A stretch of DNA of 64,000 bases from an uncultured Fibrobacteraceae bacterium (GCA_964343835.1 CAYFKR010000014.1:32406-96405), one strand, 5' to 3'. Numbered from the stretch's first letter, positions 2,810-41,582 are shown. Translations and numbers: made by a program. The notes: generated from the sequence alone by a model not told the origin.

Positions 2810-5023
2810 ATGACCCCGCACCGCCGCGCCTCGAACGCCGTCCTCGCTTCGGCCCTCGTCATCCTGTGCCTCGTCGGGTCCGTCGGCGCCGCCGACTACG
2901 CCGTCCGCTGGGGCCACCCGTCGCCCCAGGGGCAGCCCATCTTCGGCCTGGCCTTCGCCGACGACCTGAACGGCTGGGCCGTGACCCGCGGCGGCGGTGT
3001 GCTGCGCAGCGTGGACGGAGCCGAGAGCTGGACGGTGATCGCACCGGCCGGGGCCTTCAGCGACGACCTGTACGACCTGGTCGTGCTCGGGGACGGTTCC
3101 CTGATCGTCGGCGGAGACTCCCTTTACCGCAGCGCCGACGGCGGCATGACCTGGCAAGCGCTCCCACACCCCGCGACCGGCACGTTCTTCGACCTGTGCC
3201 TGATCCCCGGCGGCGGCGTGTCGGCGGCCAGCCGGGACGGGGAGGTGGTCGTCTCGTTCGACGGCGGCGACAGCTGGAGTGCGGCCGGCCCCGGAGGCGG
3301 CGACATCCGCCAGCACCTGTGGATGGATTCCCTGCGGGGCTTCGCCGTGGGAGACGGCGTGAGCCATCGCACCCTGGACGGCGGCATGACCTGGACCGAG
3401 GCCTTTCCGGCCTCGACGTTCGGCTGGAACACCATCGCGGCCGTGGACGACACGACCATCGTGGTCTACGAGGATTTCGCGTCGGCCGTGAGCACGGATG
3501 CGGGGCAGACCTGGACGGTCGAGTCGGTGTTCTCCGCGCCCCTCTACCGCTACCGCCTGCTGGTTCTGGCGCCGGATCACTGGCTGCTGACCACCCACCT
3601 GGAGGGCGCCGAGATCTGGGAGACCACCGACGGCGGTCTGACCTGGACCGAGCACTATTTCGCCCGTGACCTCGGCTTCATGGCCATCGTGCAGCTGCCG
3701 TCGGGGCGGATCGTGTGCTCGGACGACATCGGCAACATCCGCTGGTCGGACGACCTGGGCGTGACCCTCCACCTCGGCACCGTGGACCATTCCCGCCCCC
3801 ATGGCGGGATAGGCTCCGTGGACCTGATCTCTCACCGGGTCGACGGTGCGATCTTCGCCCTCTCCGACGCTTCCTCCTATCCGGACCCCGATCTCCTGCT
3901 CCGCAGTGACGACGGCGGCCTGACCTGGATGCCCGTGCCCCTGCCGCCCACCAACGGCGTCGACGGCATGGCCTGGCTCGATGCCGACACCGGCCTCGCC
4001 GCCGGCTACAATTCCATCGCCCGCACCACCGACGGCGGCGCTACCTGGACGCTCCTGGCCCTGGCGCCCGGCGGCCGCATCCGCAGCGTGGCCCTGCCCG
4101 CCGCCGACCGCTGGTTCTGCGCCGCCGCCAACGGTGGCACCGGCGACGCGGGCGGCGACATCCTCCGCAGCACCGACGGCGGCCTCACCTGGGCACCCGC
4201 CGGCGGCGGCCTGCCCACGGGCACCATGAACTCCTGGCTCGTGGAGTTCGACGACGGGGGCCTGCTCGGATTCGCCAGCGGCTACATCGGCGACATCAAG
4301 CGCACCTACCGCACCCTGGACGGCGGCGTGACCTGGAGCCTGGTCTCCGCGCTGGAGACCATCCAGGACGTGGCGTTCCCCGAGCCCGGCACGGTCGTGG
4401 CCGTCGGTGGCTTCTCGTCCTATCGCAGCACCGACGGCGGTGCGACCTGGACCTCGACGGCCCTGCCCCGGACCACGCGCGGCGTCGTCTTCGCGGATGC
4501 TTCGCGGGGGCTGGCCTGGGGATCCTCCGCCGCGTTCCTCGCCACCGAGGACGGCGGCCTCACCTGGGAGTCCGTCCCGACCCCGTTCCTCTCGCCGACC
4601 CCGCCCTGGGACACGTACAACCGCGTCGACGCCTGCGGCGTGTCGGACGAGGGCTGGATCGTGGGGGGATACGGCAACAGACTGGTGGTGCTGAACGAGG
4701 TCTCGGCCACGGGGGTCGGGGCCGGTCACGGTGGTGGCGTGACCACGGCCGTGGTGATCGACGGGGCGACGCCCAACCCGTTCAACCCGATCACCGAGCT
4801 GCATTTCCGCACGTCGGTGGAGGGGACGGTCCGGGTGACCGTGCACGACCTCGCCGGCCGCGTGGTCCGCACCCTGTCCGATGGGCCCCGGCCTGCGGGC
4901 GACCATCGGATTACGTGGCGCGGTGTCGACGACGCGGGCCGCCCGGTCGCGGCCGGCGTCTACCTGGCGAACGTCCGCGGGGGCGGCGGTGCGGCCACGG
5001 CCAAGCTCGTGCTCGTGAAGTAG
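2810..5023 (+). CDS. BNR/Asp-box repeat beta-propeller protein with a T9SS C-terminal sorting domain
   Basis: Signal peptide. Many SxDxGxTW Asp-box repeats (DGGMTW, DGGLTW, DGGATW and others). The C-terminus NPFNPITELHF...GVYLANV...KLVLVK matches the FlgD-Ig-like type A T9SS sorting domain. Confidence 0.75.
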   Translation: MTPHRRASNAVLASALVILCLVGSVGAADYAVRWGHPSPQGQPIFGLAFADDLNGWAVTRGGGVLRSVDGAESWTVIAPAGAFSDDLYDLVVLGDGSLIVGGDSLYRSADGGMTWQALPHPATGTFFDLCLIPGGGVSAASRDGEVVVSFDGGDSWSAAGPGGGDIRQHLWMDSLRGFAVGDGVSHRTLDGGMTWTEAFPASTFGWNTIAAVDDTTIVVYEDFASAVSTDAGQTWTVESVFSAPLYRYRLLVLAPDHWLLTTHLEGAEIWETTDGGLTWTEHYFARDLGFMAIVQLPSGRIVCSDDIGNIRWSDDLGVTLHLGTVDHSRPHGGIGSVDLISHRVDGAIFALSDASSYPDPDLLLRSDDGGLTWMPVPLPPTNGVDGMAWLDADTGLAAGYNSIARTTDGGATWTLLALAPGGRIRSVALPAADRWFCAAANGGTGDAGGDILRSTDGGLTWAPAGGGLPTGTMNSWLVEFDDGGLLGFASGYIGDIKRTYRTLDGGVTWSLVSALETIQDVAFPEPGTVVAVGGFSSYRSTDGGATWTSTALPRTTRGVVFADASRGLAWGSSAAFLATEDGGLTWESVPTPFLSPTPPWDTYNRVDACGVSDEGWIVGGYGNRLVVLNEVSATGVGAGHGGGVTTAVVIDGATPNPFNPITELHFRTSVEGTVRVTVHDLAGRVVRTLSDGPRPAGDHRITWRGVDDAGRPVAAGVYLANVRGGGGAATAKLVLVK

Positions 5024-5030
5024 AGGGAGC

Positions 5031-6192
5031 TCAGTTCCCGACCGGCTCGTCCGTCAGCTTGACGGCGATGCCGCGGCGCTCGAGTTCCCCGATCACCTTC
5101 GCCACCGGCACCACCAGCTCCTGGGGCTGCGCGCCGGCCTCGGCGACCTCGCCCCGGGCCAGCATGGCCGCCAGGATGGCCGCCGGGAACCCGGTCATGC
5201 GCATCATGGCCGTCAGCCCCGTCTCTGGGTCCTCCCGATCCACGATCTCGATGCACCGCCGTCGCCGTTCGCCGTCGACCGTGCCGACGGCCTCGGCCCT
5301 CAGCAGCACCAGGTCCGGTCCCGTCTTGGGACAGGCCGCCTCGAGGCACGCGCCCAGCAGGTCGCGGGGACGGACGTCGCCGGCGGGAGTCTGCACGGGG
5401 TCGTTGCCGGTCAGGCCCACCTCCATCATCAGGCGGATCTTCTCGCAGTGGCCCGGATAGCGGATGGTCTTGTAGTCCATGTCGCGTACGCGGCCCAGGA
5501 GGGTGCGCGGCAGGGTGGAGCAACCGCCGGAGGTCTGGAAGGCCTCCAGCTCGCCGAAGCCGTCGAACGACAGTGTCTCCAGCTCGCTCATGCCGGGCAC
5601 CACGGCCTGCTCGCCGTCGCGGATCACCAGGCAGGGCTCGATGTACTCGTTGATCAGTCCCTGCACCGCGAACACGATCATGTAGTCCAGGGGCGGCTGC
5701 GGGTCGGCGGGCAGGCCGCCCACGCGCAGCGTGACCCGTTCGCACGTATCCCAGGCGTGGTCCACGGCCAGGTGCCAGCCGAGCAGGCCGGCCAGGCCCG
5801 GAGCCAGGCCGCAGTCGGGCAGCACGGTCACGCCGGCGGCGGCTGCGGCCTCGTGCTGGGCGAACTGGGCGTCCACGACGTCGTTGTTTCCCCCCAGGTC
5901 CAGGAAGTGGCAGCCGTGTCGGATGGCCGTGCCGGTCAGATCCGCGTTGTACCAGTAGTTCACCGCGCTGATGCAGGCGTCGGCGCCGTCGAACAGGGGA
6001 GCGGTGAGGTCGGCGTCGCGCACGTCGCCCTGGTGGACGTGGATGCGCTCATCGGGGAAGGCGGTCCGGAAGTCCGTCAGGGTGGGGCCGTGGAACTCGA
6101 GCACGTCGAGGTGTTCCAGGTCGGGCTGGCGGAGCAGGTCGTGGGCGATGGCGCGGGCCTGCATGCCGGCGCCCAGGAGCAGGATGCGCATG
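5031..6192 (-). CDS. saccharopine dehydrogenase-like NAD(P)-binding oxidoreductase
   Basis: MRILLLGAGMQARAIAHDL Rossmann N-terminus. GGAGG lies upstream of the internal ATG at 6192. Overall Sacchrp_dh-like architecture. Confidence 0.65.
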
Positions 6193-6334
6193 GGATCCTC
6201 CGGGGGTGACGGTGACCCGCGAAATGTGCCCCATCGGACGCGCGGAGGCAACGGGGATTGCCTTGATCGGGTCCGAGCCAGGAGTTACGATCCCGCCGAG
6301 CCCGCACCGTCAACCACCCAACCGGAGGCCGCCG

Positions 6335-7237
6335 ATGGACGCCAAGACCCTCCAGGCCCGACTCCTGGAGCTGATCCGCCGCACGTCCTGCGAGATGCCG
6401 CAGGACATGATCCGCGCCGTGGACAAGGCGTGGCGCAGGGAGAAGAAGGACACCACCGCCAAGTACGCCCTGGGCGTGATGCGCGACAACATCAAGCTCG
6501 CCAACGAGCTCTCCCAGCCCCTGTGCCAGGACACCGGCACGGTGGTCTGCTACGTGGACCGTCCGTCGTGGATGAGCGAGCGCGCCTTCCGTGCCGCCTT
6601 CGACAAGGCCGTGGCCAGGGCCACGAAGCTGGGCTACCTGCGGCAGAACTCGGTGGACTCCATCACCGGAAAGAACTCCGGCAACAACCTCGGCCCCGGC
6701 AGCCCCGTCTACCACTTCCATGAGGTGACCGGCAAGACCCTCTCGGTCCGCATGATGCTCAAGGGCGGCGGCAGCGAGAACGTGTCGGCCCAGTACGCCC
6801 TGCCGGACAATCGTCTGGGCGCCGGCCGCGACCTCGACGGCGTGCGCAAGTGCGTGCTCGACGCCGTGCACCAGGCTCAGGGCAAGGGCTGCGGCCCTGG
6901 TATCCTCGGGGTCTGCGTGGGCGGCGATCGCGCCACCGGGTACGTGTCGGCCAAGGAGCAGTTCTTCCGCACCCTGGACGACCGGAACGACGACCGCACC
7001 CTCGCCAAGCTGGAGAAGACGCTGCTGGACGAGGCCAATTCCCTGGGCATCGGCCCCATGGGCTTCGGCGGCGGCACCACCCTGCTGGGAGTCAAGATGG
7101 CCGCCCGCAACCGGGTGCCCGCGTCGTTCTACGTGACCGTGGCCTACATGTGCTGGGCCTACCGCCGCAACGGGTTCAAGCTGAGCGAGGGCGGCCGCGT
7201 CACCGGCTGGCTCTACGACCAGGGAGGTGCGCGATGA
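6335..7237 (+). CDS. class I Fe-S hydro-lyase alpha subunit (fumarate hydratase FumA N-terminal / L(+)-tartrate dehydratase TtdA family)
   Basis: ALGVMRDNIKLANE...PLCQDTGTVVCYVDRP...GPMGFGGGTT is the tartrate/fumarate hydro-lyase alpha signature. RBS CCGGAGG precedes the ATG at 6335. Confidence 0.8.
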   Translation: MDAKTLQARLLELIRRTSCEMPQDMIRAVDKAWRREKKDTTAKYALGVMRDNIKLANELSQPLCQDTGTVVCYVDRPSWMSERAFRAAFDKAVARATKLGYLRQNSVDSITGKNSGNNLGPGSPVYHFHEVTGKTLSVRMMLKGGGSENVSAQYALPDNRLGAGRDLDGVRKCVLDAVHQAQGKGCGPGILGVCVGGDRATGYVSAKEQFFRTLDDRNDDRTLAKLEKTLLDEANSLGIGPMGFGGGTTLLGVKMAARNRVPASFYVTVAYMCWAYRRNGFKLSEGGRVTGWLYDQGGAR

Positions 7238-7800
7238 TCCTCGAGGCCCCCTTCACCGCGAAGAAGATGCGCGAACTGCGCGTGGGCGACGTCGTGGAGA
7301 TCACCGGCAAGCTGTTCACCGGCCGCGACGCCTTCCACAAGTACCTGCACGACGGCGGCAAGCCGCCCGTCGACCTGAAGGACTCCATCATCTATCACTG
7401 CGGCCCGGTGGTGGTGAAGGAGGGCGGCAAGTGGGTCGTCAAGGCCGCCGGACCGACGACCTCCATCCGCGAGGAGCCCTACCAGGGGCCGTTGATGGAG
7501 CAGTACGGGATCCGCGGCGTCATCGGCAAGGGCGGCATGGGGCCCAAGACCCTGGCCGCGTGCAAGAAGGTGGGCGGGTGCTACTTCCACGCCATCGGCG
7601 GCGCTGCCCAGGTGCTGGCGAAGCGCGTGACGAGCGTGCCGGACGTCCACCTGCTCGAGGAGTTCGGATCGCCGGAGGCGGTCTGGGAGTTCGAGGTCGT
7701 CAAGTTCCCTGTCGTGGTGACCATGGACAGTCACGGCGGTTCCCTGCATGCGGAGGTCGACGCCGTCTCGGCGAAGGCCCTCGGCAAGCTGATCGGGTGA
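7234..7800 (+). CDS. class I Fe-S hydro-lyase beta subunit (FumA C-terminal / TtdB family)
   Basis: 188 aa with GRDAFHKYL...IYHCGPVV...GKGGMG...CYFHAIGGAAQVLA, the beta-subunit swivel-domain signature. ATGA overlap with the alpha stop indicates translational coupling. Confidence 0.8.
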   Translation: MILEAPFTAKKMRELRVGDVVEITGKLFTGRDAFHKYLHDGGKPPVDLKDSIIYHCGPVVVKEGGKWVVKAAGPTTSIREEPYQGPLMEQYGIRGVIGKGGMGPKTLAACKKVGGCYFHAIGGAAQVLAKRVTSVPDVHLLEEFGSPEAVWEFEVVKFPVVVTMDSHGGSLHAEVDAVSAKALGKLIG

Positions 7801-7813
7801 CCGGAGGAGGAGC

Positions 7814-9133
7814 ATGAGCCAGCATTCCGGAGACCAGGGCGCGGGAAGGATCCCGCACGAGGAGTTCCTCTCCCTGGCTGAGATCCTCAACATCCTGTGG
7901 CGCCGCAAGGTGATGATCGTGCTGCTGACCCTGCTGGGGCTGGTGGCGGGCATCGTGTACGGCATCGTCACGCCACCCCTCTACCGGGCCACGGCCAACG
8001 TGCGCCCCGGCATCACCAGATACAACAGCAACGGCCACCCCCAGCGCACCTGGCACCTGAAGGACATCGTGCGCTGGTACCGGGGCGGCCTCTACAACAC
8101 GGGCGTGCGCCGGTCCTTGGGCTGGGAGAGCAACGGCCTGGTGCCGCTGATCGAGGCCGAGTTCATTCCCCGTGGCGTGGGCGTGCAGGGCGGCGACGTG
8201 GTGACCCTCACCCTGCTGCACGTGGACGGCCTGGAGGCCCGCGAGGTGCTGGACGCATCCATCGACGCCTTCAACGAGTACGCCGAGGTCAACAGCGTGG
8301 GCAGCGACATCTCCCTGTCGCGCAACAGCCTCCAGCGCCAGATCGAACAGCTCGCCAACGACCGCGAGGACGTCGAGGTCAAGAAGGCCCTGCTGGACGT
8401 GGAGATCGAACGGGCCAGCGCCGAGCTGGGCGTGATCGCCGTGGAGGAGGAGGCCCTGGAGCTGAAGATCGCCGAGCACGAGGCGGCCCAGCGTCATCGC
8501 GAGGCCAAGGCCGGACGGCTGGAGGAGGGCGTCGAGTCCGCCCGCTCCGAGCTCGGCGAGATGGACGGCATCCTGGACCGCATGCGCGTGAAGGAGGCCC
8601 GGCAGGACGAGCGCGACTCGCTGATGACGACCGAGCCCCTGGTCGACGCCGTGTCCCTGCCCTGGTGGGAGATGGTGGAGGACAAGACCGCCAGCACCGG
8701 GCGCCTGTTGCTGAGCACCCTGAACATGCAGCGCGCCATGTGGAACCACGAGCTCGAGGCCGTGGAACTGCGGGCCGAGTACGAGACCGCCGACCTGGCC
8801 CGCCGCGCCGAGCTGCTGACCGAGCGGTTCGATCTGGCCAACCGCCGCCGCCTGGTCGAGCTGGACGTGCGCGAGAAGGAGCTGAACCGGGACCGCGCCC
8901 TGGCCCAGGAGATCGTCAACATCGACGACGAGATCCGGCTCATCGAGTCGCGCCTGGAGGTGCTGACCTCCCTGGAGAAGATCGGTGTGATCGAGGCCAC
9001 CGAGAAGCCCGTGCGGCCGCGGAAGCAGCGGGCCATCGGGCTGCTGACCCTGGCCGGCCTGCTCGGGTCGGTGGGGCTGGCCTTCGTCTGGGAGTACCTG
9101 TCGCGCAACCGCGCGGAGATCTTCCGCTCCTGA
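7814..9133 (+). CDS. polysaccharide co-polymerase (Wzz / chain-length determinant family, no kinase domain)
   Basis: N-terminal Wzz motif LWRRKVMIVLL...PPLYRATANV, a long coiled-coil periplasmic region and a C-terminal TM (AIGLLTLAGLLGSVGLAFVWEYL). GGAGGAGG RBS. Confidence 0.7.
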   Translation: MSQHSGDQGAGRIPHEEFLSLAEILNILWRRKVMIVLLTLLGLVAGIVYGIVTPPLYRATANVRPGITRYNSNGHPQRTWHLKDIVRWYRGGLYNTGVRRSLGWESNGLVPLIEAEFIPRGVGVQGGDVVTLTLLHVDGLEAREVLDASIDAFNEYAEVNSVGSDISLSRNSLQRQIEQLANDREDVEVKKALLDVEIERASAELGVIAVEEEALELKIAEHEAAQRHREAKAGRLEEGVESARSELGEMDGILDRMRVKEARQDERDSLMTTEPLVDAVSLPWWEMVEDKTASTGRLLLSTLNMQRAMWNHELEAVELRAEYETADLARRAELLTERFDLANRRRLVELDVREKELNRDRALAQEIVNIDDEIRLIESRLEVLTSLEKIGVIEATEKPVRPRKQRAIGLLTLAGLLGSVGLAFVWEYLSRNRAEIFRS

Positions 9134-11585: not shown

Positions 11586-13616
<2,031 letters not shown>

Positions 13617-13640: not shown

Positions 13641-13674
13641 GGCCCGCTCCCCGTTCGGGGGGCGGGCCTTTTCC
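13641..13674 (+). terminator. rho-independent terminator of hppA
   Basis: ggcccgctcccc-gttc-ggggggcgggcc (12-bp stem, one mismatch) immediately followed by TTTTCC. Confidence 0.55.
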
Positions 13675-13739: not shown

Positions 13740-13981
13740 GTTCAATATGTGAAGGGTGTTGCGGCGAAGGCTGAAGATATTGTGCAGCTATCTTGTATGT
13801 GACATGAATGCAGGATGTTGGAGATCTCTCGCCATCAGGAGGGTGTTAAATTATACCAGCATATGGTGCCTAAAATCGTCAGTTACACCTCAAGTGTTTA
13901 TTCCTTGACCCGATCTGTTATAGAATTAACCGTAATGACAGAGCAACCCGCGAACCGGACCTCATCCCGAGGAGATCAGCG
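13740..13981. promoter_or_regulatory. AT-rich (roughly 45% GC) non-coding island upstream of the hydrogenase operon; probable promoter/regulatory region
   Basis: About 240 nt of conspicuously low GC in a roughly 70% GC genome. No ORF. It ends at the GAGGAG RBS of hydB. It contains TTGACC (13905..13910), but no -10 element at canonical spacing was found. Confidence 0.4.
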
Positions 13982-15004
13982 ATGGTTCAGTATTTCCTGG
14001 ATTCCCTCCGTGTCGCCGATTTCGTGGCGCACATGATGGAGCGGAAGACGGTCTACGCCCCCCACCGCAAGGGCGTCCGATCCCACGTGTTCGCCGAGAC
14101 GACCGATCCGGCGGCCGTGGTCCTGGACTACCCGCGCACCCTGCATTCCGTGAAGAAGTACTTCCTGCCCCCGCGCGAGAGGCTGCTGAGCTTCGACCTG
14201 GCCAGCAACAGCTTCGAGGCCTCCGAGGTGGAGCCCGTGGACGCGGTCTTCCTGGGGGTGCACAGCTACGACATGCACGCGGTGCTGAAGCTCGACCACA
14301 ACTTCAGCCACGGCCAGCCCGAGCGGAACTACATGACCCGCCGGGAGGGGGCGGTGTTCTTCGGCGTCTCGTTCACGCCCGACGAGCATCACTTCAGCGG
14401 TTCGGTGGGCATCGGCGCCCGCGACATGACCGGCTTCGACGCCTTCCTGGCCGCGGTGGACGGGGGCTGGGCCCTGACCGTCAGGACCGAGGCAGCCCTG
14501 AAGCTCGTCGAGGGGTTCGAGATGCCCCTGTACGACGGCGACCTGCCGGTGGCCCCCCCGTTCAACCAGCACATCTACGTGCCCCAGGACCGTTTGTCCG
14601 AGGTCTTCGAAGGGGCCTGGGAGAATCCCGTCTGGGACGAGACGGCCGAGACCTGCGTGGGTTGCGGCAGCTGCAACCTGGTCTGCCCCACCTGCTACTG
14701 CTTCGACGTGGAGGACCAGGTGGACGTGACCGTCACCGGCGGCGTGCGCGAGCGCAACTGGGACGGCTGCATGCTCCGCGAGTTCACCGAGGTCGCCGGC
14801 GGCGAGGTGTTCCGCGAGGAGCCTGCCGCCTGCCAGCGCCATCGCGTGTACCGCAAGTTCAAGTACATCTCCGACGAGACGGGTGAACCCTGGTGCGTGG
14901 GCTGCGGACGTTGCACGCAGTCGTGCACGGCCGGCATCAGCATCGTCGCCATCGTCAACCGCCTGGTGAACGACCACGATCAGGCGACCGTGGCGCCGGC
15001 CTAG
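13982..15004 (+). CDS. hydB: [NiFe]-hydrogenase group 3b (sulfhydrogenase-type) beta subunit, 4Fe-4S dicluster protein
   Basis: CVGCGSCNLVCPTCYC and CVGCGRCTQSCTAG ferredoxin-type cluster motifs. Same position and size as HydB in hydBGDA operons. Confidence 0.75.
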   Translation: MVQYFLDSLRVADFVAHMMERKTVYAPHRKGVRSHVFAETTDPAAVVLDYPRTLHSVKKYFLPPRERLLSFDLASNSFEASEVEPVDAVFLGVHSYDMHAVLKLDHNFSHGQPERNYMTRREGAVFFGVSFTPDEHHFSGSVGIGARDMTGFDAFLAAVDGGWALTVRTEAALKLVEGFEMPLYDGDLPVAPPFNQHIYVPQDRLSEVFEGAWENPVWDETAETCVGCGSCNLVCPTCYCFDVEDQVDVTVTGGVRERNWDGCMLREFTEVAGGEVFREEPAACQRHRVYRKFKYISDETGEPWCVGCGRCTQSCTAGISIVAIVNRLVNDHDQATVAPA

Positions 15005-15025: not shown

Positions 15026-15874
15026 ATGAGCCACACCAGCGAATCGACCTCCGCGGCCCGGGACCTGTACCTCCCGGTCATGGCGGAGATCACGGGGATC
15101 GAGACCATGACGGAGCTCGAGACCCTGTACGAGGTCACCCTGCCCGACGGCGCCGAGCTGGGGCACATGCCCGGCCAGTTCGTCGAGGTGTCCCTGTTCG
15201 GAGTCGGCGAGGCGCCGTTCTCCATCTCGTCGTCGCCGACCCGCAAGGGCACGTTCGAGATGGGCATCCGCCGCGTGGGCATGCTCACCGAGGTCATGGG
15301 CCGCATGCAGCCCGGCGAGAAGATCGGCATCCGCGGTCCCTTCGGCCGGGGCGTGCCGGTGGACGAGTTCAAGGGGAAGGACGTGCTGGTCGTCGCCGGC
15401 GGCATCGGCCTGGTGCCCATGCGCTCGATGATCAACTACGTCCTGGACAACCGCGACGACTTCGGGCGTCTGATCATCTGCTACGGCTCCCGGAGCGACG
15501 AGGAACTGCTCTACCGGAACGAGCTGAAGACCTGGGAGGAGGACCCGCGCGTCGAGTTCCATGTGACCGTCGACCACGGCTCCCCCGACTGGACCGGCCG
15601 CACCGGCGTGATCACCACCCTGATCCCCGGCCTGGACCTGGACCTGAACAACACCAGGGCCCTGGTCTGCGGCCCTCCGGTGATGTACCGCTTCGCCCTG
15701 CTTTCGCTGCGCTCGAAGGGCCTGTCCGAGGACAACATCTGGATGTCCCTGGAACGGCGCATGAAGTGCGGCGTGGGCAAGTGCGGCCACTGCCAGATCA
15801 ACAACTCGTACGTGTGCCAGGACGGCCCCGTGTACCACTACCCCGAGCTCAAGGGTCTCCAGGAGGCGTTGTGA
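15026..15874 (+). CDS. hydG: hydrogenase gamma subunit, FAD/NAD(P)-binding oxidoreductase with a C-terminal [2Fe-2S] (ferredoxin-NADP reductase-like)
   Basis: PGQFVEVSLFGVGEAPFSISS (FAD site), VVAGGIGLVPMRSM (NAD site), C-terminal CGVGKCGHCQ. GGAGGAAACC precedes the ATG. Confidence 0.8.
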   Translation: MSHTSESTSAARDLYLPVMAEITGIETMTELETLYEVTLPDGAELGHMPGQFVEVSLFGVGEAPFSISSSPTRKGTFEMGIRRVGMLTEVMGRMQPGEKIGIRGPFGRGVPVDEFKGKDVLVVAGGIGLVPMRSMINYVLDNRDDFGRLIICYGSRSDEELLYRNELKTWEEDPRVEFHVTVDHGSPDWTGRTGVITTLIPGLDLDLNNTRALVCGPPVMYRFALLSLRSKGLSEDNIWMSLERRMKCGVGKCGHCQINNSYVCQDGPVYHYPELKGLQEAL

Positions 15875-16623
15875 TGGCGAACAAACCCAAGGTCGGCATC
15901 TTCGACTTCACGGGCTGCGAGGGGTGCGAGCTCAACCAGCTCAATTTCGAGGACCAGCTGCTGGACATCATCGAGCACGTGGACATCGTCGAGTGGCGCG
16001 AGGCCATGGACGGACAGGCCGACGAGCTCGACATCGCGTTCGTGGAGGGTTCCCTCTCGACCCCCGACTGCATCAAGCGGATCCACGAGATCCGCCGCAA
16101 GTCGAAGGTCCTGGTGGCCGTCGGGGCCTGCGCGTCCCAGGGCGGCGTGAATGCCATGAAGAACACGCGGCCCATCGAGGACGTGCGCGAGGAGGTGTAC
16201 GGGGAGGACAAGTACCTCTTCCCGACGCTCCCGGCCCTGCCTCTGGACGCGGTCGTGAGGGTGGACTACAAGGTCAGGGGCTGCCCCATGACCCAGATCG
16301 AGTTCCTGAAGGTCTTCACGTCGCTGGTGATGGGCAAGGAGCCCGTCGAACCCGACAGCGCCGTGTGCGTGGAGTGCAAGCTGAAGGAGAACGAGTGCGT
16401 GGTGGAGAAGGGTATGATCTGCCTGGGCCCGGTCACGCGCCTCGGCTGCGACGCCCACTGCACCACCTTCGGCCAGTACTGCACGGGCTGCCGCGGCCTC
16501 GTCTCGGATCCCAACATCGAGGGCATGCAGGAGATCCTGGTGAGCAACGGCCTGTCCATGGACGAAGCCTGGAAGCGGCTCCAGCTCTACAACGCCAACC
16601 AGCTCGAGGGGGTGCAGCGATGA
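15874..16623 (+). CDS. hydD: [NiFe]-hydrogenase small (delta) subunit
   Basis: GCEGC...AVGACASQGG...RGCP...ICLGPVTRLGCDAHC is the NuoB/hydrogenase small-subunit proximal cluster ligand pattern. TGATG overlap with hydG. Confidence 0.85.
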   Translation: MANKPKVGIFDFTGCEGCELNQLNFEDQLLDIIEHVDIVEWREAMDGQADELDIAFVEGSLSTPDCIKRIHEIRRKSKVLVAVGACASQGGVNAMKNTRPIEDVREEVYGEDKYLFPTLPALPLDAVVRVDYKVRGCPMTQIEFLKVFTSLVMGKEPVEPDSAVCVECKLKENECVVEKGMICLGPVTRLGCDAHCTTFGQYCTGCRGLVSDPNIEGMQEILVSNGLSMDEAWKRLQLYNANQLEGVQR

Positions 16624-17924
16624 GCGCCAACCTGGACATCAACGTCCACCACCTCACGAGGGTGGAGGGTCACGGCAACATCGTCGTGAACATGAAGGAA
16701 GGGGTGCTGGAGAAGGCGCAGCTCGAGATCGTCGAGGCGCCCCGGTACTTCGAGGCCATGCTCAAGGGGCGCAGCTTCCACGAGGCGGCCATCATCACCT
16801 CGCGGATCTGCGGCATCTGCTCCCTGGGCCACCAGATCACCTCGCTGAAGGCCACCGAGGCGGCCCTCGGCCTGGAGGTGAGCGAGCAGACGATCCTGCT
16901 GCGCAAGCTCCTGATCCACGGGGCCACCCTGCAGTCCAACGTGCTGCACGCCTACTTCCTGGCGGCGCCCGACTTCCTGGGCGTGGGGTCCGTGTTCCCG
17001 CTGATCGGGACGCATCCCGAGGTCGTGAAGCGGGCGCTGCGCATGAAGCGCCTGAGCAACGACATCGGCGACGTGGTGTCCGGCCGGGCCGTGCACCCCA
17101 TCACGCCGGTGCCGGGCGGGTTCACGCGGATCCCCACGGAGAAGGAGTTGCTGGAGATCAAGCGGCGGCTGGTGGAGGAGATGGTGCCCGACTACATGGC
17201 CACCATCGACACCCTCGAGGGTCTGGCCGGGGCCATCCCGGACTTCACCCGCGAGACGGAGTTCATCGCCCTGCGCAGCGACGACGACTACGCCCTGTAC
17301 GACGGCGACATCAGCTCCACCGACACCGGTCGCGTGGACGACGCCGAGTACCGGCGCATGACCAACGAGTTCATCGTGCCCCACAGCACGTCGAAGCACT
17401 GCAAGGTCAACCGGTCGTCGTACATGGTGGGCGCCCTGGCCCGCTGGAACAACAACCACGACCGGCTGTGCGACGTGGCCATGCAGGCGGCCGAGCGGCT
17501 CGGCCTGAAGCCGGACTGCCACAACCCGTACATGAACACCATCGCGCAGGTGGTGGAGGCCGGGCACTGCGCCCTGGACTCGGTGGCCATCATCGACAGG
17601 CTGCTGGAGAACGGGCTGAAGGACGAGGCGCCGAACCAGGAGCCCACCCGGTACGGCACCGGCGTGGGAGCCACCGAGGTGCCCCGCGGCATCCTGTACC
17701 ACGAGTACACCTACGACCGCCAGGGTCGGGTGACCGCGGCCAACTGCATCATCCCCACGGGCCAGAACCTGGCGAACATCGACGACGACATGAAGGCCCT
17801 GGTGCCCGAGGTCGTGGACCGGCCCAAGGAGGAGATCACGCTGATGCTCGAGATGCTGGTGCGGGCCTACGACCCGTGCATCAGCTGCTCGGTGCACATG
17901 CTGGACGTCGAGTTCAAGGAGTAG
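16620..17924 (+). CDS. hydA: [NiFe]-hydrogenase large (alpha) subunit
   Basis: N-terminal RICGICSLGH (RxCGxCxxxH Ni-Fe site) and C-terminal DPCISCSVH (DPCxxCxxH), followed by an 8-aa extension. ATGA overlap with hydD. Confidence 0.9.
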   Translation: MSANLDINVHHLTRVEGHGNIVVNMKEGVLEKAQLEIVEAPRYFEAMLKGRSFHEAAIITSRICGICSLGHQITSLKATEAALGLEVSEQTILLRKLLIHGATLQSNVLHAYFLAAPDFLGVGSVFPLIGTHPEVVKRALRMKRLSNDIGDVVSGRAVHPITPVPGGFTRIPTEKELLEIKRRLVEEMVPDYMATIDTLEGLAGAIPDFTRETEFIALRSDDDYALYDGDISSTDTGRVDDAEYRRMTNEFIVPHSTSKHCKVNRSSYMVGALARWNNNHDRLCDVAMQAAERLGLKPDCHNPYMNTIAQVVEAGHCALDSVAIIDRLLENGLKDEAPNQEPTRYGTGVGATEVPRGILYHEYTYDRQGRVTAANCIIPTGQNLANIDDDMKALVPEVVDRPKEEITLMLEMLVRAYDPCISCSVHMLDVEFKE

Positions 17925-17926
17925 TG

Positions 17927-18400
17927 ATGAAGGTCATCGCCGTAGGCAATCCCCTGTACGGGGACGACGGGGTCGGCGCGGCCGTCCTGGCGAAGCTCGC
18001 GGAGGAGAACCACCTCCCGGGGGCCGAGCTCGTGGACTGCCACACCGACGCCCTCTCGGTGATCGACCACTTCACACCCGGCGAGCTTCATGTCATCATC
18101 GACGCGGCGAAGATGGGCGAACGTCCCGGCTGCGTCGTGCGCTTCACTCCCGACGAGGTGCGCCTGCGCATCGAATGGGACCACCTCTCGATGCACGGGT
18201 TCGGCCTGGCCGAGACCTTCGCCATGGCCGAGGCCATCGGCGAGATGCCCGAGCGGGTGGTGATCGTCGGCGTGGAGCCGGAGATCGTACAAATCGACCG
18301 GGGACTGTCCGACGCCGTGGCGGCGGCCGTCCCCGAGGTGATCGCGACCATCCAAGCGGAGGTTCAAGGCGATGTCGCAGAGGACCATCCTCGTCGTTGA
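17927..18400 (+). CDS. hydrogenase maturation endopeptidase (HycI/HoxW/FrhD family)
   Basis: 157 aa. MKVIAVGNPLYGDDGVGAAV...HTDALSVID...VGVEP matches the Ni-dependent C-terminal processing protease family. Confidence 0.8.
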   Translation: MKVIAVGNPLYGDDGVGAAVLAKLAEENHLPGAELVDCHTDALSVIDHFTPGELHVIIDAAKMGERPGCVVRFTPDEVRLRIEWDHLSMHGFGLAETFAMAEAIGEMPERVVIVGVEPEIVQIDRGLSDAVAAAVPEVIATIQAEVQGDVAEDHPRR

Positions 18401-18767
18401 CGACGATATCGACCTGGTGGAGATCATCCGCGTGACCCTCGAGAACGAGGGCTACGCCGTCATCGACGCCCAGAGCGGGGAGCGGGGCCTGACCATGGCC
18501 CGCGAAGAGAATCCCGACCTGATCATCCTGGACGTGATGATGGGCCAGGTGGACGAAGGCTTCCAGGTGGCCTACGAGCTGCGCGGGGCCGAGCCCACCA
18601 AGGACATCCCCATCATCATGCTCACGGCGGTGGCCGACCAGACCGGGTTCGCGTTCGACCCGGGCAAGGACCAGGGGTTCCTGCCCGTGAACGAGTTCCT
18701 GGAGAAGCCCGTCAGCCCGCGGCGGCTGGTGGACATGGTGAGGCAGCACCTGCCCACGGAGATCTGA
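18372..18767 (+). CDS. single-domain response regulator (CheY-like receiver only)
   Basis: ILVVDDD...DLIILDVMM...IPIIMLTA...FLEKP carries the receiver Asp and Lys signatures. No output domain. GGAGG lies 9 nt upstream. Confidence 0.8.
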   Translation: MSQRTILVVDDDIDLVEIIRVTLENEGYAVIDAQSGERGLTMAREENPDLIILDVMMGQVDEGFQVAYELRGAEPTKDIPIIMLTAVADQTGFAFDPGKDQGFLPVNEFLEKPVSPRRLVDMVRQHLPTEI

Positions 18768-20131
18768 TGACTCCTGGAACGCCCAGCGGCGAGCGCGTGG
18801 CGGCGGTTTCGGCCCAGTTCGTTTCCGCCGCCAGCCTCCGCGTGCGTTCCGACTGGTTCAACAAGCTCCGCTGGGGCGCCGCCGGCGCGGTGGTGGCCTT
18901 CAGCACCGGGGTGGCGGCCTTCGGCGGCATCGACCTGCCCCTGGCGCCGCTGCTGGGGCTGGGGGCGATGCTCCTGCTGCTGAACGCCGGCTACGTGGTG
19001 CGCAATCACCGCATCGCGCCGGCGGACATCGAGGCCGAGCTCCGCATCGTCAAGATCCAGATGGTGGTGGACCTGGTCCTGCTGACCGCGGTGCTCCACT
19101 TCTCCGGCGGTGTGGAGAACCCCTTCCAGTTCATCTACATCATCCACGTGATCATCGCGAGCCTGCTGTTCAAGGGACGCGAGATCTTCCATATCGCGTG
19201 GCTGGCCATCGGGCTGTTCTCCCTGATGGTGCTGGGCGAGCACTTCGGCTCCCTCGATCACCATCATCTGCTGAGCGCCAGCGAGCTGACCCACGAACCC
19301 GCGTACATGGCCATGTCGCTGGGGTCCATGTGGATCGTGCTGCTCACGAGCGCGTGGATCGGCGCCGCCATCATGCGGCACAACCGGACCATCAAGGACG
19401 AGCTCGTGCAGCGTCAGGACGAGCTGGCGCAGGCGGGAAAGGCCCAGCTGGATTTCTTCCGTTTCGTGACCCACGAGATCAAGTCGCCCATCGTGACGGC
19501 CCAGAGCGCGGTGGAGGCTGCCCGCGAACTCGGCGACGACGGCGCGGCCCCGGCCGTCGACGACATGCTGCGGAGTGCCGTGACCCGCCTGGAGCAGGCC
19601 ACGGGCATCGTCCGGGACCTGGCCGACCTGACCCGCGGCAGCATGGCGGCCAGGCCCGGGTTCACGGACGTGGACCTGGCGGCGATCCTCACGAGGGTGC
19701 TGGACCAGCAGGCGGAGTCCATGGCGGCCAGGGACATCGCCCTGACGACGGAGATCCCGGCAGGGGCGGTGACGGTTTCCGGGGACGAGAGCATGCTCGA
19801 CAAGATCGTGTCCAACCTGGTGAGCAACGCGGTCCGGTACAACCGGGACGGCGGCTCGGTGACCGTCGCCCTCGCGCCGTACGACGGGGGCGGGCTGCTG
19901 ACGGTCAGCGACGAGGGCATCGGCATCGCTCCCGAGGACCGGGACCGCATCTTCGAGGAATTTTACAGGACGGCGGCGGCCCGCGAGGCCAGTCGCCTAG
20001 GGTCGGGGCTGGGGCTGCCCATCGTCAAGCGCTTCGTGGAACAGCACGGCGGGACGATCGCGGTGGACAGCACGCCCGGCCGCGGATCCACCTTCACGGT
20101 CCGGCTGCCGGGACGAAAGGGACGGTCATGA
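18767..20131 (+). CDS. membrane-embedded sensor histidine kinase
   Basis: About 5 to 6 N-terminal TM helices. H-box FRFVTHEIKSP. HATPase N/G boxes (VSNAVRYN, DEGIGI, GSGLGLPIV). ATGA-type overlap with the response regulator stop. Confidence 0.8.
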   Translation: MTPGTPSGERVAAVSAQFVSAASLRVRSDWFNKLRWGAAGAVVAFSTGVAAFGGIDLPLAPLLGLGAMLLLLNAGYVVRNHRIAPADIEAELRIVKIQMVVDLVLLTAVLHFSGGVENPFQFIYIIHVIIASLLFKGREIFHIAWLAIGLFSLMVLGEHFGSLDHHHLLSASELTHEPAYMAMSLGSMWIVLLTSAWIGAAIMRHNRTIKDELVQRQDELAQAGKAQLDFFRFVTHEIKSPIVTAQSAVEAARELGDDGAAPAVDDMLRSAVTRLEQATGIVRDLADLTRGSMAARPGFTDVDLAAILTRVLDQQAESMAARDIALTTEIPAGAVTVSGDESMLDKIVSNLVSNAVRYNRDGGSVTVALAPYDGGGLLTVSDEGIGIAPEDRDRIFEEFYRTAAAREASRLGSGLGLPIVKRFVEQHGGTIAVDSTPGRGSTFTVRLPGRKGRS

Positions 20132-20607
20132 CCGAGCGCATCCAGTGCGGGGGGCTGATCGAGCGCGAAGACCTCTGCCTGATCGAGGTGCAGGGCTACG
20201 CCTGGAGACCGGGCAAGTCCTGCGGCATCCTCTGCCGCTTCGCCGATGCGGGGATCCCGCTGGCGTTCCTGAACATCAGCAACACGAACGAGGGCCTCAA
20301 GAGCATGAGCTTCTGCCTGGCCCGCGAGGCCATGGCCAAGGTGCCGCCCCTCATCGAGCAGGTGGAACGGGAGTTCGCTCCCGAGCGGGTGGTGGTGCAG
20401 GAGGGTATCAGCATCGTCACGCTGTACGGCCCGCACTTCTACGAGCGGGTGGCCCTGGCCAGCGAGGTCTATTCCTGCCTGTGCATCGAGGGCATCGACG
20501 CCCAGTCGGTGGGCTCGTCGGTCAACAGCATCTCCCTGGTGGTGCGCGCCGGCGACGTCGAACGCACGAAGCAGGCCCTGTCGGCCCGTTTCGAGTGGCC
20601 GATCTGA
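20128..20607 (+). CDS. tandem ACT-domain protein (aspartate-kinase-regulatory-domain-like)
   Basis: 159 aa. Two beta-alpha-beta-beta-alpha-beta-like halves (LIEV...GILCRFADAGIPLAF...; ISIVTLYGP...SSVNSISLVV). ATGA overlap with the kinase stop. Confidence 0.55.
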   Translation: MTERIQCGGLIEREDLCLIEVQGYAWRPGKSCGILCRFADAGIPLAFLNISNTNEGLKSMSFCLAREAMAKVPPLIEQVEREFAPERVVVQEGISIVTLYGPHFYERVALASEVYSCLCIEGIDAQSVGSSVNSISLVVRAGDVERTKQALSARFEWPI

Positions 20608-20654: not shown

Positions 20655-21218
20655 GTGCGTCGAATCGTCCTGCTGTTCCTCGTTCTTCTCCTTGCCGTTC
20701 TCGCTGTGGCTCCGACCTCGGCCGACGACCGCGTCCGCCGCCGCCCCGCCGTGGCCGAACAGGTCGACCTGGCCCGCTACATGGGTCTGTGGTACGAGAT
20801 CGCCCGCATCCCCACCAAGCACCAGAAGTCCTGCACCTGCTGCGCCACCGCGGAATACGTGGACGAGGGGAAGGGCAAGGTGTCCATCTACAACCGCTGC
20901 CTCCAGGCCGACGGCTCGGTGAAGGAGGCCAAGGCGGAGGCCCGCGTGATCTCGGCCAACAACGCCCGCTGGAAGGCGACGTTCTTCAAGCTCCTGGGCA
21001 TCCCGGTGGCCAAGGGCGACTACTGGATCCTGGGCGTGGACGACGACTACCGCTGGGCCGTGGTGGGCGACCCCGAACGCAAGTACGGCTGGATCCTCTC
21101 GCGCTCCCCGGACATGGCGCCGGAGGTCCGCGCCGAGGTGGACGCCCTGATCGCCGACCGGGGATACGACCCGGACATGTTCATCGACACGCCCCAGGAC
21201 GGAGGCGACCATGACTGA
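20655..21218 (+). CDS. blc: bacterial lipocalin (Blc family)
   Basis: Signal peptide. YMGLWYEIARIP (lipocalin SCR1 G-x-W-Y) and YWILGVDDDYRWAVVGDP...WILSRSP, the typical Blc signature. GTG start 8 nt after CGGAGG. Confidence 0.75.
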   Translation: MRRIVLLFLVLLLAVLAVAPTSADDRVRRRPAVAEQVDLARYMGLWYEIARIPTKHQKSCTCCATAEYVDEGKGKVSIYNRCLQADGSVKEAKAEARVISANNARWKATFFKLLGIPVAKGDYWILGVDDDYRWAVVGDPERKYGWILSRSPDMAPEVRAEVDALIADRGYDPDMFIDTPQDGGDHD

Positions 21219-21528
21219 CGTGAAGGCCGGCGAGGTGGGCCGCTACGGCAGCGTGCTGGAAGCGGAGATCGATCAGGGTCGTCTGGAGTCCGCGGGCATC
21301 CCCGCCCGCGTGCGCAGGGACGACTGCGGCGGCATGTATCCCCAGCTCGTCATGCACAAGCCGGTGCGGCTCGAGGTGGACGTCGCCGATGCGGAACGGG
21401 CCCTAGAGATCCTGGGCGAGGCCGCCGACGCGCCGCCGACCCCCGCCTGGACCTGCTCCTGCGGCGAGACCGTCGAGCAGGGCTACGACGCCTGCTGGAA
21501 GTGCGGGGCCGGACGTTCATCCGACTGA
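21211..21528 (+). CDS. DUF2007-like small protein with a C-terminal zinc ribbon
   Basis: 105 aa. The N-terminal half resembles putative signal-transducing (PII-like) DUF2007. C-terminal CSCG...CWKCG four-Cys ribbon. GGAGG RBS. Confidence 0.45.
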   Translation: MTDVKAGEVGRYGSVLEAEIDQGRLESAGIPARVRRDDCGGMYPQLVMHKPVRLEVDVADAERALEILGEAADAPPTPAWTCSCGETVEQGYDACWKCGAGRSSD

Positions 21529-40371: not shown

Positions 40372-41582
40372 AGTTGTGCCACCGAAAATGTCCCTCGCTT
40401 ATGGAGTAGCCCCCATCGGATCCCGCCTTACCCCTCAGTATGCATATGAAAGACAGTGCCGCTGATTCACTGTGAAGCCAACTGTCAAAACCGCTCGATC
40501 GTAGTACTTAGCCCATACATCCGGTACATCGACCCGAGACCTGAACAGCCGTTCCCGCAACACATCCATCACCGTCCACATCCTATCAACCACACCCTTG
40601 AGCATCCCCGACGACACCGGGGGGCCTTTCTCCCATCTTCGTTTGACCAGGTTCTTCCAAACCATCAGAATCGACAACCGCTCCGCCGAACTCTGCCTCC
40701 GCTTCACCCAGGCGATCGTTTCGCGCTTGTGAGCCGCCGTGCTGTGACGGATCAGTAGATCGGCCAGGTTTACCTCCCACAACGGGTTGTGCTTGTCCCG
40801 GTGATCCTTGCTCGAGGTCACCTGGTGCCGGAATGTGCATCCTAGCTGGGATATCGCTCGCCGATAGGCGGGATGCTCGTCGCTCCGGCCGGTGATTACG
40901 TAACGGCCCTTTGAGACATATTGAAGCAACGACAGGATGCCATTCTGGACGGCTTTAGGGTCGGGGCGACCATGTAGTTGCTCCAATTCTGCTCTTCGCT
41001 TCTTCTGCTGATCGGTCATCCGGCCCTTTCGTCGCAGCGGGCTATCGGTGTGGAAGAGCAGGAACCCATTGTCGGACTCGACGGCGATGTTGTGGTGGAA
41101 CGGATAGTACTGACTGAGCTCGAAGGTCTCGAAACCATCGAAGACGATCTCAGCCGGAGAGGGCACACCTTCCAACAGATTCATATGCAATAGCATGCAG
41201 TGTCGGCCCAGGCGTGATACGTGGCGGTCGACCGTCGAGGGGCTGCACTTCAGGGCACGGGCGATCTGACGGTTGGCCATGCAACCGACGGTCATCATGA
41301 AGATCTTGGCGTCGAGGTCGGGGCGCTTTTGCCAGTAGGTGGTCGAAAAGGTCTGGGAACTGAAGGTTCTGCGGCAGTGGAGGCATGTGAACCGTTGGAT
41401 ACGCCTGGGGGCGATGCGTCGGGTATAAAAGCCCTTCCGTTTGAAGGGCCAGTGATCGTGGTGACCCTTGTGGTACTTGCATTTAGGGTTGGGGCAGTGG
41501 GGCGGTTGCCAGCCGTGCTTGTGAGTGTCCATGGCCGCGTGATTGCCGGTTTCGAGCCAGGGACACTTTCAGAGGCACAACT
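40372..41582. mobile_element. IS1-family insertion sequence (single-ORF type), 1211 bp
   Basis: 28-bp imperfect terminal inverted repeats (24/28 identical). 9-bp flanking direct repeat CAAGCTGTT / CAAGGTGTT. GC markedly lower than the surroundings. Carries one transposase ORF. Confidence 0.7.
40435..41532 (-). CDS. IS1-family transposase (InsA-like zinc finger plus HTH fused to a catalytic domain)
   Basis: N-terminus HCPNPKC...RKGFYTRR...FTCLHCRRTF...KIFMMTVGCMANRQIARALKCSPSTVDRHV is co-linear with IS1 InsA (CPSC...RNGK...CSHCRKTW...[29 protein letters not shown]). 365 aa. Confidence 0.7.
   Translation of the reverse strand: MDTHKHGWQPPHCPNPKCKYHKGHHDHWPFKRKGFYTRRIAPRRIQRFTCLHCRRTFSSQTFSTTYWQKRPDLDAKIFMMTVGCMANRQIARALKCSPSTVDRHVSRLGRHCMLLHMNLLEGVPSPAEIVFDGFETFELSQYYPFHHNIAVESDNGFLLFHTDSPLRRKGRMTDQQKKRRAELEQLHGRPDPKAVQNGILSLLQYVSKGRYVITGRSDEHPAYRRAISQLGCTFRHQVTSSKDHRDKHNPLWEVNLADLLIRHSTAAHKRETIAWVKRRQSSAERLSILMVWKNLVKRRWEKGPPVSSGMLKGVVDRMWTVMDVLRERLFRSRVDVPDVWAKYYDRAVLTVGFTVNQRHCLSYAY

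Follow-up and report, generated by a model that had tools for sequence, protein, structure and literature searches.

What do a response regulator, a histidine kinase and an ACT-domain protein do at the 3' end of a hydrogenase operon? The question is raised by a 64,000-nt stretch of DNA from a metagenome-assembled bacterium (uncultured Fibrobacteraceae bacterium, GCA_964343835.1, CAYFKR010000014.1:32406-96405), in which these three genes directly follow an operon for a group 3b [NiFe] hydrogenase. The whole stretch, hereafter the window, has a GC content of 69%. We find that the triplet is very probably a functional, integral part of this operon family. On balance, we favor the view that it is a quinone- or redox-sensing module that adjusts the NAD(P)H-to-H2 hydrogenase to cellular redox conditions and acts via protein contacts. 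The eight genes concerned are as follows.

13982-15004, + strand: hydB, Fe-S (beta) subunit of a group 3b [NiFe] hydrogenase (Pfam Fer4_22, 7.8e-29)
15026-15874, + strand: hydG, FAD/NAD(P)-binding (gamma) subunit (Pfam FAD_binding_6, NAD_binding_1 and DHODB_Fe-S_bind)
15874-16623, + strand: hydD, small (delta) subunit (Pfam Oxidored_q6; NCBIfam sulfhydrogenase HydD, 1.9e-58)
16620-17924, + strand: hydA, [NiFe] large (alpha) subunit (Pfam NiFeSe_Hases; NCBIfam ShyA/HydA, 1e-74)
17927-18400, + strand: hydrogenase maturation endopeptidase, the protease (Pfam HycI, 6.8e-20; TIGR00072, 1.4e-36)
18372-18767, + strand: single-domain response regulator, the receiver, 131 aa (Pfam PF00072 Response_reg, 2e-20)
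18767-20131, + strand: histidine kinase, 454 aa (Pfam 6TM_PilS, HisKA and HATPase_c)
20128-20607, + strand: stand-alone tandem-ACT protein, 159 aa (NCBIfam, profile search of the PDB and AlphaFold model)

Four subunit genes and a maturation protease make up the group 3b [NiFe] hydrogenase set (Pfam, NCBIfam), and these matches identify hydBGDA as the genes of a group 3b, NAD(P)-linked [NiFe] hydrogenase. The HydA translation contains the CxxC nickel-iron ligand motifs (RICGICS and DPCISCSVH), followed by a C-terminal extension, MLDVEFKE, for the protease. The best NCBIfam matches of HydA and HydD fall under the equivalog cut-offs, so that the enzyme is a relative of the ShyA/HydA and HydD/ShyD enzymes and not an orthologue. 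The original prediction, made from the sequence of the window, had placed the triplet directly 3' of this operon and had described three overlapping junctions, and its coordinates and domains all hold. The receiver gene begins 29 nt inside the 3' end of the protease gene and has a GGAGG ribosome-binding site in front of it. The kinase ATG at 18767 has one base in common with the receiver stop codon (TGATG), and the ACT ATG at 20128 lies within the overlap with the kinase stop codon (ATGA). No terminator-like site was found between 14400 and 22500, including the protease/receiver junction and the region 3' of the ACT gene, by a consensus scan that is crude and whose counts were not above those of shuffled sequence. 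We infer that hydB-hydG-hydD-hydA-protease-receiver-kinase-ACT is one operon, transcribed together.

Is the arrangement peculiar to this genome? A protein search returned 47 close relatives of the ACT protein, all of ~159 aa, and the seven that were looked up (7/7) all belonged to loci with the eight genes in the order given above. A genome scan with one genome per GTDB species yielded 45 loci. The genes from hydA to the ACT gene, in the same order, were present in 39/40 distinct loci that had at least 3.7 kb upstream of the ACT gene, and all eight genes in 35/36 that had at least 6.5 kb. Co-occurrence of the triplet with group 3b hydrogenases in other genomes, which the original prediction had proposed as a check, was thereby borne out in 39 of 40 loci, and a gene order so widely shared is not due to chance. 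The protease/receiver overlap is 4 to 41 nt in most loci and the kinase/ACT overlap is 4 nt in most. HydB identity is 60-70% among orthologous loci. The flanks vary from locus to locus and include a pyrophosphatase gene with FKBP, HydF with a radical SAM protein, NikR with CbiM, hyp genes, an ATP-grasp gene and a lipocalin gene. Records that name a lineage are mostly Krumholzibacteriota or Krumholzibacteriia; some carry Gemmatimonadetes or Fibrobacter labels, which we suspect to be binning-era names.

A further complete block was the sole return of a single-sequence scan with a borderline member of the ACT family. This locus (L059; JACKQG010000103.1, 851-7483, 35% GC) has all eight genes, with identities of 78% for hydA, 65% for the receiver, 38% for the kinase and 34% for the ACT protein. 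Mean pairwise distances across the family are 0.23 for hydD, 0.23 for hydA, 0.31 for the receiver, 0.33 for hydG, 0.48 for hydB, 0.57 for the protease, 0.74 for the kinase and 0.84 for the ACT protein; the receiver evolves about as slowly as the hydrogenase subunits and far slower than the kinase. The distance matrices of the eight proteins are congruent (r 0.56-0.89), which fits inheritance of the block as a unit. Mirror-tree analysis was dropped as a pointer to the partner of the ACT protein: co-variation with phylogeny extends to all eight proteins, and the partial correlations are weak and not decisive.

What the module might sense is best approached through the kinase. Hydropathy places six hydrophobic helices at residues ~35-54, 58-78, 93-112, 120-135, 140-158 and 181-203, with no periplasmic domain and with HisKA and HATPase_c after helix 6. 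The original prediction of a membrane-integral kinase with 5 to 6 transmembrane (TM) helices and no periplasmic domain was correct as to topology; the membrane domain did not stay anonymous, as it groups with RegB/PrrB/ActS. The N-terminal 241 aa have two NCBIfam matches, NF033792 (ActS/PrrB/RegB; 5.4e-11 over residues 23-188) and RegB NF045988 (1.7e-7). In Pfam, residues 91-163 match 6TM_PilS (9e-9, above the gathering score). The six-helix domain spans ~residues 35-203, and its best-conserved part is the TM3-TM4 loop on the outer face, which reads GGVENPF at 114-120. The ubiquinone site of RegB is a GGXXNPF motif in the TM3-TM4 loop, in which mutation of N110 or F112 abolishes quinone binding and redox control, and R31 and Q38 in helix 1 contribute to ubiquinone binding too (PMC3000548). 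Across 44 orthologues of the kinase the pattern is GGxENP[F/L], with N118 and P119 invariant, and the helix-1 arginine (R35, in LRW) is at least 90% conserved. Both LRW and GGxxNPF align in register with P0085, a canonical RegB-type kinase and a distant match to the membrane domain, which is surrounded by cox genes, SURF1 and a REC+HTH_8 regulator (L061), the canonical RegB context.

The transmitter of the kinase is of the PhoR/WalK type. HisKA occupies residues 227-290, with H236 in THEIKSP, and HATPase_c matches at 7e-31; the boxes NLVSNAVRY, DEGIGI, FEEFYR and GSGLGL are kept in orthologues. A RegB-style cysteine redox switch was considered for this kinase and rejected, since no Cys is conserved in the 44 orthologues. 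By homology, the sensor domain of the kinase is RegB-like. Whether it also reads quinone or the membrane redox state is an evenly balanced proposition.

The receiver has the Response_reg domain and no second domain (Pfam), in agreement with the CheY-like regulator without an output domain that had been predicted. Its nearest named relatives are the receivers of PhoB/OmpR-family regulators. D10, D11, D54 and K112 are invariant in orthologues, position 85 is T (here) or S, and the alpha4 region contains a highly conserved insertion, TGFxFDPxKDxxFLPV. The AlphaFold model shows a standard five-stranded receiver fold (pLDDT 86), with residues 86-107, the remodelled alpha4, less confident. A Foldseek search of this model for an informative relative returned generic receivers only (RR468, DivK and PhoB-family domains). 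Identity to the receiver is 72-83% in Krumholzibacteriota orthologues and 65% and 61% in the 35% GC locus L059 and the variant L048, respectively. More than 120 clusters are at least 75% identical to it. A receiver without a DNA-binding domain must act via protein contacts.

The third protein had been predicted to be a tandem-ACT protein, and it is one despite a Pfam score below threshold (ACT_9, 20.5 bits vs. 27 bits). NCBIfam matches are to the C-terminal region of aspartate kinases (6e-12), and a profile search of the PDB returned 2RE1, 2DTJ and 5YEI_D at ~1e-12. The AlphaFold model (pLDDT 92) has two consecutive ACT domains in the arrangement of aspartokinase beta subunits and superposes in Foldseek on 3AAW_D, 2DTJ and 5YEI_B with TM-scores of 0.84-0.89 at 17-20% identity. 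Conserved motifs are CGGL (N-terminal), TLYGPHF.E (the ligand loop of the second ACT domain), SSVNSIS and RF.WP (C-terminal), of which the cores GGL, TLYGPHF.E, SSVNSIS and F.WP are invariant in the family. An amino-acid or redox signal had been suggested for the system. A redox or metabolite input is reasonable; an amino acid as the ligand is a guess from aspartokinase homology, and the GPHF.E loop differs from the aspartokinase pattern. No aspartokinase gene was seen in the conserved block or in the annotated parts of the window, and the ACT gene always follows the kinase gene. Several homologues of the ACT protein are annotated as aspartokinase by the Joint Genome Institute (JGI).

Sensing of metal or an Fe-S cluster by the ACT protein, or through any of its seven cysteines, was considered and rejected, there being no convincing ligand set. 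L004 and L059 (P0221) have Ile at the position of C7, which the wider family also shows (IGGI); P0036 and P0041 lack C119; and C63 is part of a core strand that is kept across the whole family. The wider family of stand-alone tandem-ACT proteins (P0217-P0267) is ~157 aa long and has KIxIGGI, YGPHFRExP, ISTSIS and FxxP in common. The hydrogenase-linked branch is more remote from true aspartokinase regulatory domains than this wider family, which matches them at ~1e-33 in NCBIfam.

Does the triplet ever occur without the hydrogenase? It does so once in ~40 loci, so that the link asserted by the original prediction is overwhelming but not exclusive. In L048 (1-8882; triplet at 5699-7975), the sole locus where the triplet is not behind a hydrogenase, the order is pyrophosphatase, ArsP-type permease, thioredoxin, DsbD_TM protein, a 316-aa HydG-like FAD/NAD/Fe-S oxidoreductase and then the triplet, with identities of 61% for the receiver, 51% for the kinase and 38% for the ACT protein. 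Since the feature that remains shared is an NAD(P)H-linked redox module, this locus refines the association more than it refutes it. In L058 (3505-10666, 40% GC) a receiver-kinase pair lies directly 5' of rnfC-D-G-E-A and an NqrF-like gene, and the ACT gene is absent; the receiver-only protein is 43% identical and has the same insertion, and the six-helix kinase is 29% identical and has the same HFSGGVENPF. In L057 and L060, the neighbor of a more loosely related pair is a LytTR system. From these variants, the receiver-kinase pair looks like a cassette for membrane and NAD(P)H redox enzymes, and the ACT protein looks like an addition specific to the hydrogenase-linked version.

Expression of the operon may be set from a conserved element upstream of hydB.

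13895-13935, + strand: conserved promoter/operator element, ~40 nt (family consensus TGTTTATTTCTTGACAT-N5-TGTT-N8-AACATTT; window copy TGTTTATTCCTTGACCCGATCTGTTATAGAATTAACC)

The element is alignable in ~27 orthologous loci, 80-125 nt 5' of hydB. Within it are a TTGACA that resembles a -35 box, an imperfect palindrome and, at a distance of 22 nt from each other, two repeats similar to TGTTTA. An exact 16-mer of the element occurs in 17 loci, one copy per locus and each time 5' of hydB; the 64-kb window has 1 copy vs. 0.11 expected. The sole terminator-like site nearby is a hairpin at 13650-13667, upstream of the element. A search of the 365-nt leader of hydB and the rest of the window for known RNAs or riboswitches gave no Rfam match at the gathering score and no tRNA. 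In L048, a partial match (CGTTAATTGCTTGACA, 4671-4686, 3 mismatches, 0 expected) precedes the HydG-like gene; among the other variants, no copy was found in L058 and nothing obvious in L059. The degree of conservation implies a dedicated DNA-binding factor, and the receiver alone cannot be that factor.

Taken together, these features suggest the following mechanism. The conserved promoter ~80 nt 5' of hydB would drive the eight-gene operon, so that enzyme and sensor would be made together. By homology, the RegB-type domain of the kinase would most likely report, via the GGxENP[F/L] outer loop between helices 3 and 4, whether the membrane quinone pool is oxidized or reduced. The PhoR-like HisKA/HATPase core would then phosphorylate the co-translated receiver on D54, as their adjacency and translational coupling suggest. 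Two routes onward from the receiver are likely. It may feed back on its own kinase or serve as a phosphate sink, as FixT does on FixL, or it may dock onto a conserved partner, for which the candidates are RNA polymerase or a DNA-binding regulator at the conserved hyd promoter, and the hydrogenase itself. The ACT protein, translationally coupled to the kinase, would most likely add a small-molecule input by binding the kinase or the receiver, for which PII acting on NtrB and the tandem-ACT protein GcvR acting on GcvA are precedents. The logic of such a mechanism fits group 3b enzymes as redox valves under acceptor limitation. The physiological target of the module is probably the hydrogenase.

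A more direct version of this mechanism is that the phosphorylated receiver, with or without the ACT protein, docks on the hydrogenase itself (e.g., on the NAD(P)H-binding HydB/HydG module) and gates NAD(P)H-H2 electron flow post-translationally. It is prompted by conservation of the receiver near that of the hydrogenase subunits (72-83%) and far above that of the kinase, by production of the receiver in fixed proportion with the enzyme, and by L048, which has lost the catalytic subunits but keeps the triplet next to a HydG-like subunit. We nevertheless regard it as a long shot. If it were true, a two-component system would exert real-time allosteric control over a hydrogenase by quinone-pool redox state and a metabolite, and not by transcription.

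Several observations weigh against a quinone-sensing module that controls the hydrogenase. Full-length scores of the kinase against the two RegB models are 42 and 29.9 bits, for cut-offs of 350 and 570 bits, far under the equivalog level; the kinase is accordingly not a RegB orthologue and has the sensor domain alone in common with RegB. The Phe of the RegB site is replaced by Leu in about half of the kinase orthologues, the equivalent of RegB Q38 is V42 in the alignment to P0085 and varies among orthologues, and RegB Cys265 is absent from a kinase that has zero cysteines. PilS senses a membrane protein and not quinones, and the GGxxNPF motif may be structural. No target of the receiver is encoded in the conserved block, and neither a DNA-binding response regulator nor an Hpt protein was found among the annotated genes of the window (which include a methyl-accepting chemotaxis protein, hyp genes, metabolic enzymes and an insertion-sequence-like open reading frame). 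The locus counts start from the ACT gene and cover loci that contain it. Partial correlations in the mirror-tree analysis are weak (receiver-ACT 0.50, protease-ACT 0.46, receiver-kinase 0.28, kinase-ACT 0.27). The whole case is built from homology and gene context in an uncultured lineage.

Some of these points feed other explanations. The triplet could be a redox two-component system of general function that is simply carried along on the transcript of the hydrogenase, with targets elsewhere in the genome and no control over the hydrogenase; co-transcription would then merely make the sensor under the same conditions as the enzyme. A receiver with no DNA-binding domain and no target encoded nearby is in keeping with this, as are the triplet beside a non-hydrogenase redox module in L048, the related pairs by rnf/nqr or a LytTR system, and the fact that RegB/RegA systems are global regulators (PMC3000548, PMC5506826). 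Global regulators are, however, rarely locked into the 3' end of one enzyme operon, and here the fixed position and overlapping codons persist in 39/40 loci, from 35% to 69% GC, with all flanks changing. We consider such a passenger unlikely. A narrower doubt concerns the signal: the membrane domain could be a PilS-like, intramembrane-sensing domain that responds to a membrane protein, a lipid property or a proton or sodium gradient instead of the quinone pool. The above-gathering 6TM_PilS match, the missing Q38 and Cys265 equivalents and the H+-pyrophosphatase gene directly upstream in many loci would suit this idea. The NCBIfam matches of the membrane domain are nonetheless to RegB-family models only, the loop that is the experimental quinone site of RegB (PMC3000548) is its best-conserved part, and the block conserves neither a pilin nor any similar membrane-protein partner, which together leave a PilS-like sensor distinctly improbable.

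Operon linkage to a hydrogenase, along with a receiver as conserved as the subunits, could instead recall an H2-sensing circuit of the HupUV-HupT-HupR (HoxBC-HoxJ-HoxA) kind, in which hydrogen sensed via a hydrogenase would control the kinase. This explanation is very hard to sustain: a sensory (group 2b) hydrogenase is absent, the receiver is not of the NtrC type, the kinase is membrane-integral and passes from helix 6 to HisKA with no intervening PAS domain or other cytoplasmic sensor, and the triplet exists without hydA and hydD in L048. Equally far-fetched is a true aspartokinase beta subunit, or another amino-acid-pathway regulator, that has nothing to do with the kinase and receiver. Its nearest relatives in sequence and structure are indeed aspartokinase beta subunits, JGI labels say as much, and a wider stand-alone family of ~157 aa exists. 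Identity to the beta subunits is just 17-20%, though, the invariant GPHF.E loop is not the aspartokinase pattern and there is no aspartokinase catalytic gene nearby. Moreover, a kinase homologue lies directly 5' of the ACT gene in every examined locus that reaches upstream, mostly with an ATGA overlap, and the ACT gene stays with the kinase in L048 where the hydrogenase is gone. The preferred reading remains a redox-sensing module dedicated to the hydrogenase.

The surroundings of the operon contain three further features of interest.

11586-13616, + strand: H+-pyrophosphatase (H+-PPase) gene, directly 5' of the hydrogenase operon
21211-21528, + strand: DUF2007 protein ("putative prokaryotic signal transducing protein"), 105 aa, with a C-terminal CxC...CxxC ribbon; overlaps the end of the lipocalin gene
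40435-41532, - strand: 365-aa open reading frame, putative insertion-sequence transposase, with an N-terminal Cys/His zinc-finger-like segment

The gap from the H+-PPase gene to hydB is 365 nt, and the terminator-like hairpin at 13650-13667 follows the H+-PPase gene. An H+-PPase gene lies directly 5' of the hydrogenase operon in L001, L006, L011, L034 and L043 as well, and it is still 5' in L048 although the hydrogenase is replaced there. This adjacency may reflect a functional link to membrane energetics. On the other side, the ACT gene is followed by a lipocalin gene, the DUF2007 gene and a gene for a FlgD_ig protein, with hypE, hypD, hypC, hypF and hypB on the opposite strand. The lipocalin-DUF2007 pair recurs 3' of the ACT gene in several loci, though not in all. 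In L059, a 130-aa open reading frame lies directly 3' of the block on the opposite strand; in size alone it resembles a 129-aa open reading frame found beyond the ATP-grasp gene 3' of the block in L004 and L009. The putative transposase gene lies in the sole marked GC dip of the window (0.62 vs. ~0.69).

Group 3b hydrogenases are widespread NAD(P)H-linked H2 valves whose regulation is known in very few organisms. To our knowledge, the lineage considered here has no cultured member. Across this lineage, which consists of Krumholzibacteriota and relatives from sediments, soils, sponges and wastewater, the sensor appears to be built into the operon: a kinase that unites a RegB-type membrane domain with a PhoR-type transmitter is accompanied by a receiver that has no output domain and by a ligand sensor derived from aspartokinase. 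If quinone sensing is true, H2 would be made or consumed when the respiratory chain backs up, which is a simple rule, and a RegB sensor domain would be at work outside Proteobacteria and outside its partnership with RegA. The receiver-kinase pair by rnf/nqr and the triplet beside a thiol-redox module suggest a control cassette that can be reused among NAD(P)H-linked redox enzymes. The hydB element offers a handle for finding the DNA-binding component of the circuit.

How does this module compare with known systems? In the searchable literature we found no report of a group 3b hydrogenase whose genes are accompanied by those for a kinase, a receiver or an ACT protein, which upholds the original prediction that the circuit is not a described one. 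Precedents do exist in RegB/RegA control of hupSLC and DosS/T-DosR control of Hyh; with all components in known families and redox two-component control of hydrogenases known, the circuit is not without known likeness, and its novelty is to that extent smaller. Of the systems cited with that prediction, E. coli HydH/HydG is the zinc-responsive ZraS/ZraR system. HupUV-HupT-HupR and HoxBC-HoxJ-HoxA are a kinase and response regulator dedicated to a [NiFe] hydrogenase. They need a sensory hydrogenase, a soluble PAS kinase and an NtrC-type activator, and none of these domains was found here.

For the two small proteins the closest parallels lie elsewhere. FixT, a single-domain receiver, exerts feedback inhibition on an oxygen/redox sensor kinase (PMC7078487). 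Unlike the receiver described here, which has no Cys motif, FixT carries a 4-Cys Fe-S motif. The kinase FixL is of the PAS-haem type and works with FixJ, a DNA-binding partner of a type not seen here. FixT of Sinorhizobium meliloti needs AsnO for its activity, and AsnO derives from an enzyme of amino-acid metabolism. The FixT-AsnO pair may thus parallel the receiver and its aspartokinase-derived ACT protein, as a functional resemblance only. The ACT protein itself has the fold of the aspartokinase beta subunit, but it has no aspartokinase partner here and its second-ACT loop is distinct. GcvR and PII are small ligand-binding proteins that regulate a transcription factor or a histidine kinase by direct binding.

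The nearest functional precedents are redox two-component systems. In Mycobacterium smegmatis, the group 3b Hyh works as an H2-evolving redox valve, and the redox-sensing DosS/T-DosR system induces it (bioRxiv 10.1101/2023.09.11.557286). Like the module proposed here, DosS/DosT-DosR is a redox- or oxygen-responsive two-component system that governs a group 3b hydrogenase. DosS and DosT are soluble haem-GAF kinases, whereas the present kinase is membrane-integral; DosR, a DNA-binding protein of the LuxR type that is encoded elsewhere, regulates a large regulon, whereas the present receiver is output-less and lies within the hydrogenase operon. RegB/RegA controls a [NiFe] hydrogenase operon, hupSLC, in Rhodobacter capsulatus (PMC5506826). 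RegB and its counterparts (PrrB/PrrA, ActS/ActR, RoxS/RoxR) have a homologous six-helix domain, with the TM3-TM4 GGxxNPF loop and the TM1 Arg. They differ in the H-box, which is HELGTP in RegB and HEIKSP in the kinase of the window, where the transmitter core is PhoR/WalK-like, and in the Cys265 and Q38 that RegB has and this kinase lacks. RegA is a receiver with a Fis-type HTH_8 domain, whereas the partner here is a receiver alone. Finally, RegB/RegA is a stand-alone global regulator, whereas the kinase and receiver described here are encoded inside the 3' end of one enzyme operon, with an ACT protein added.

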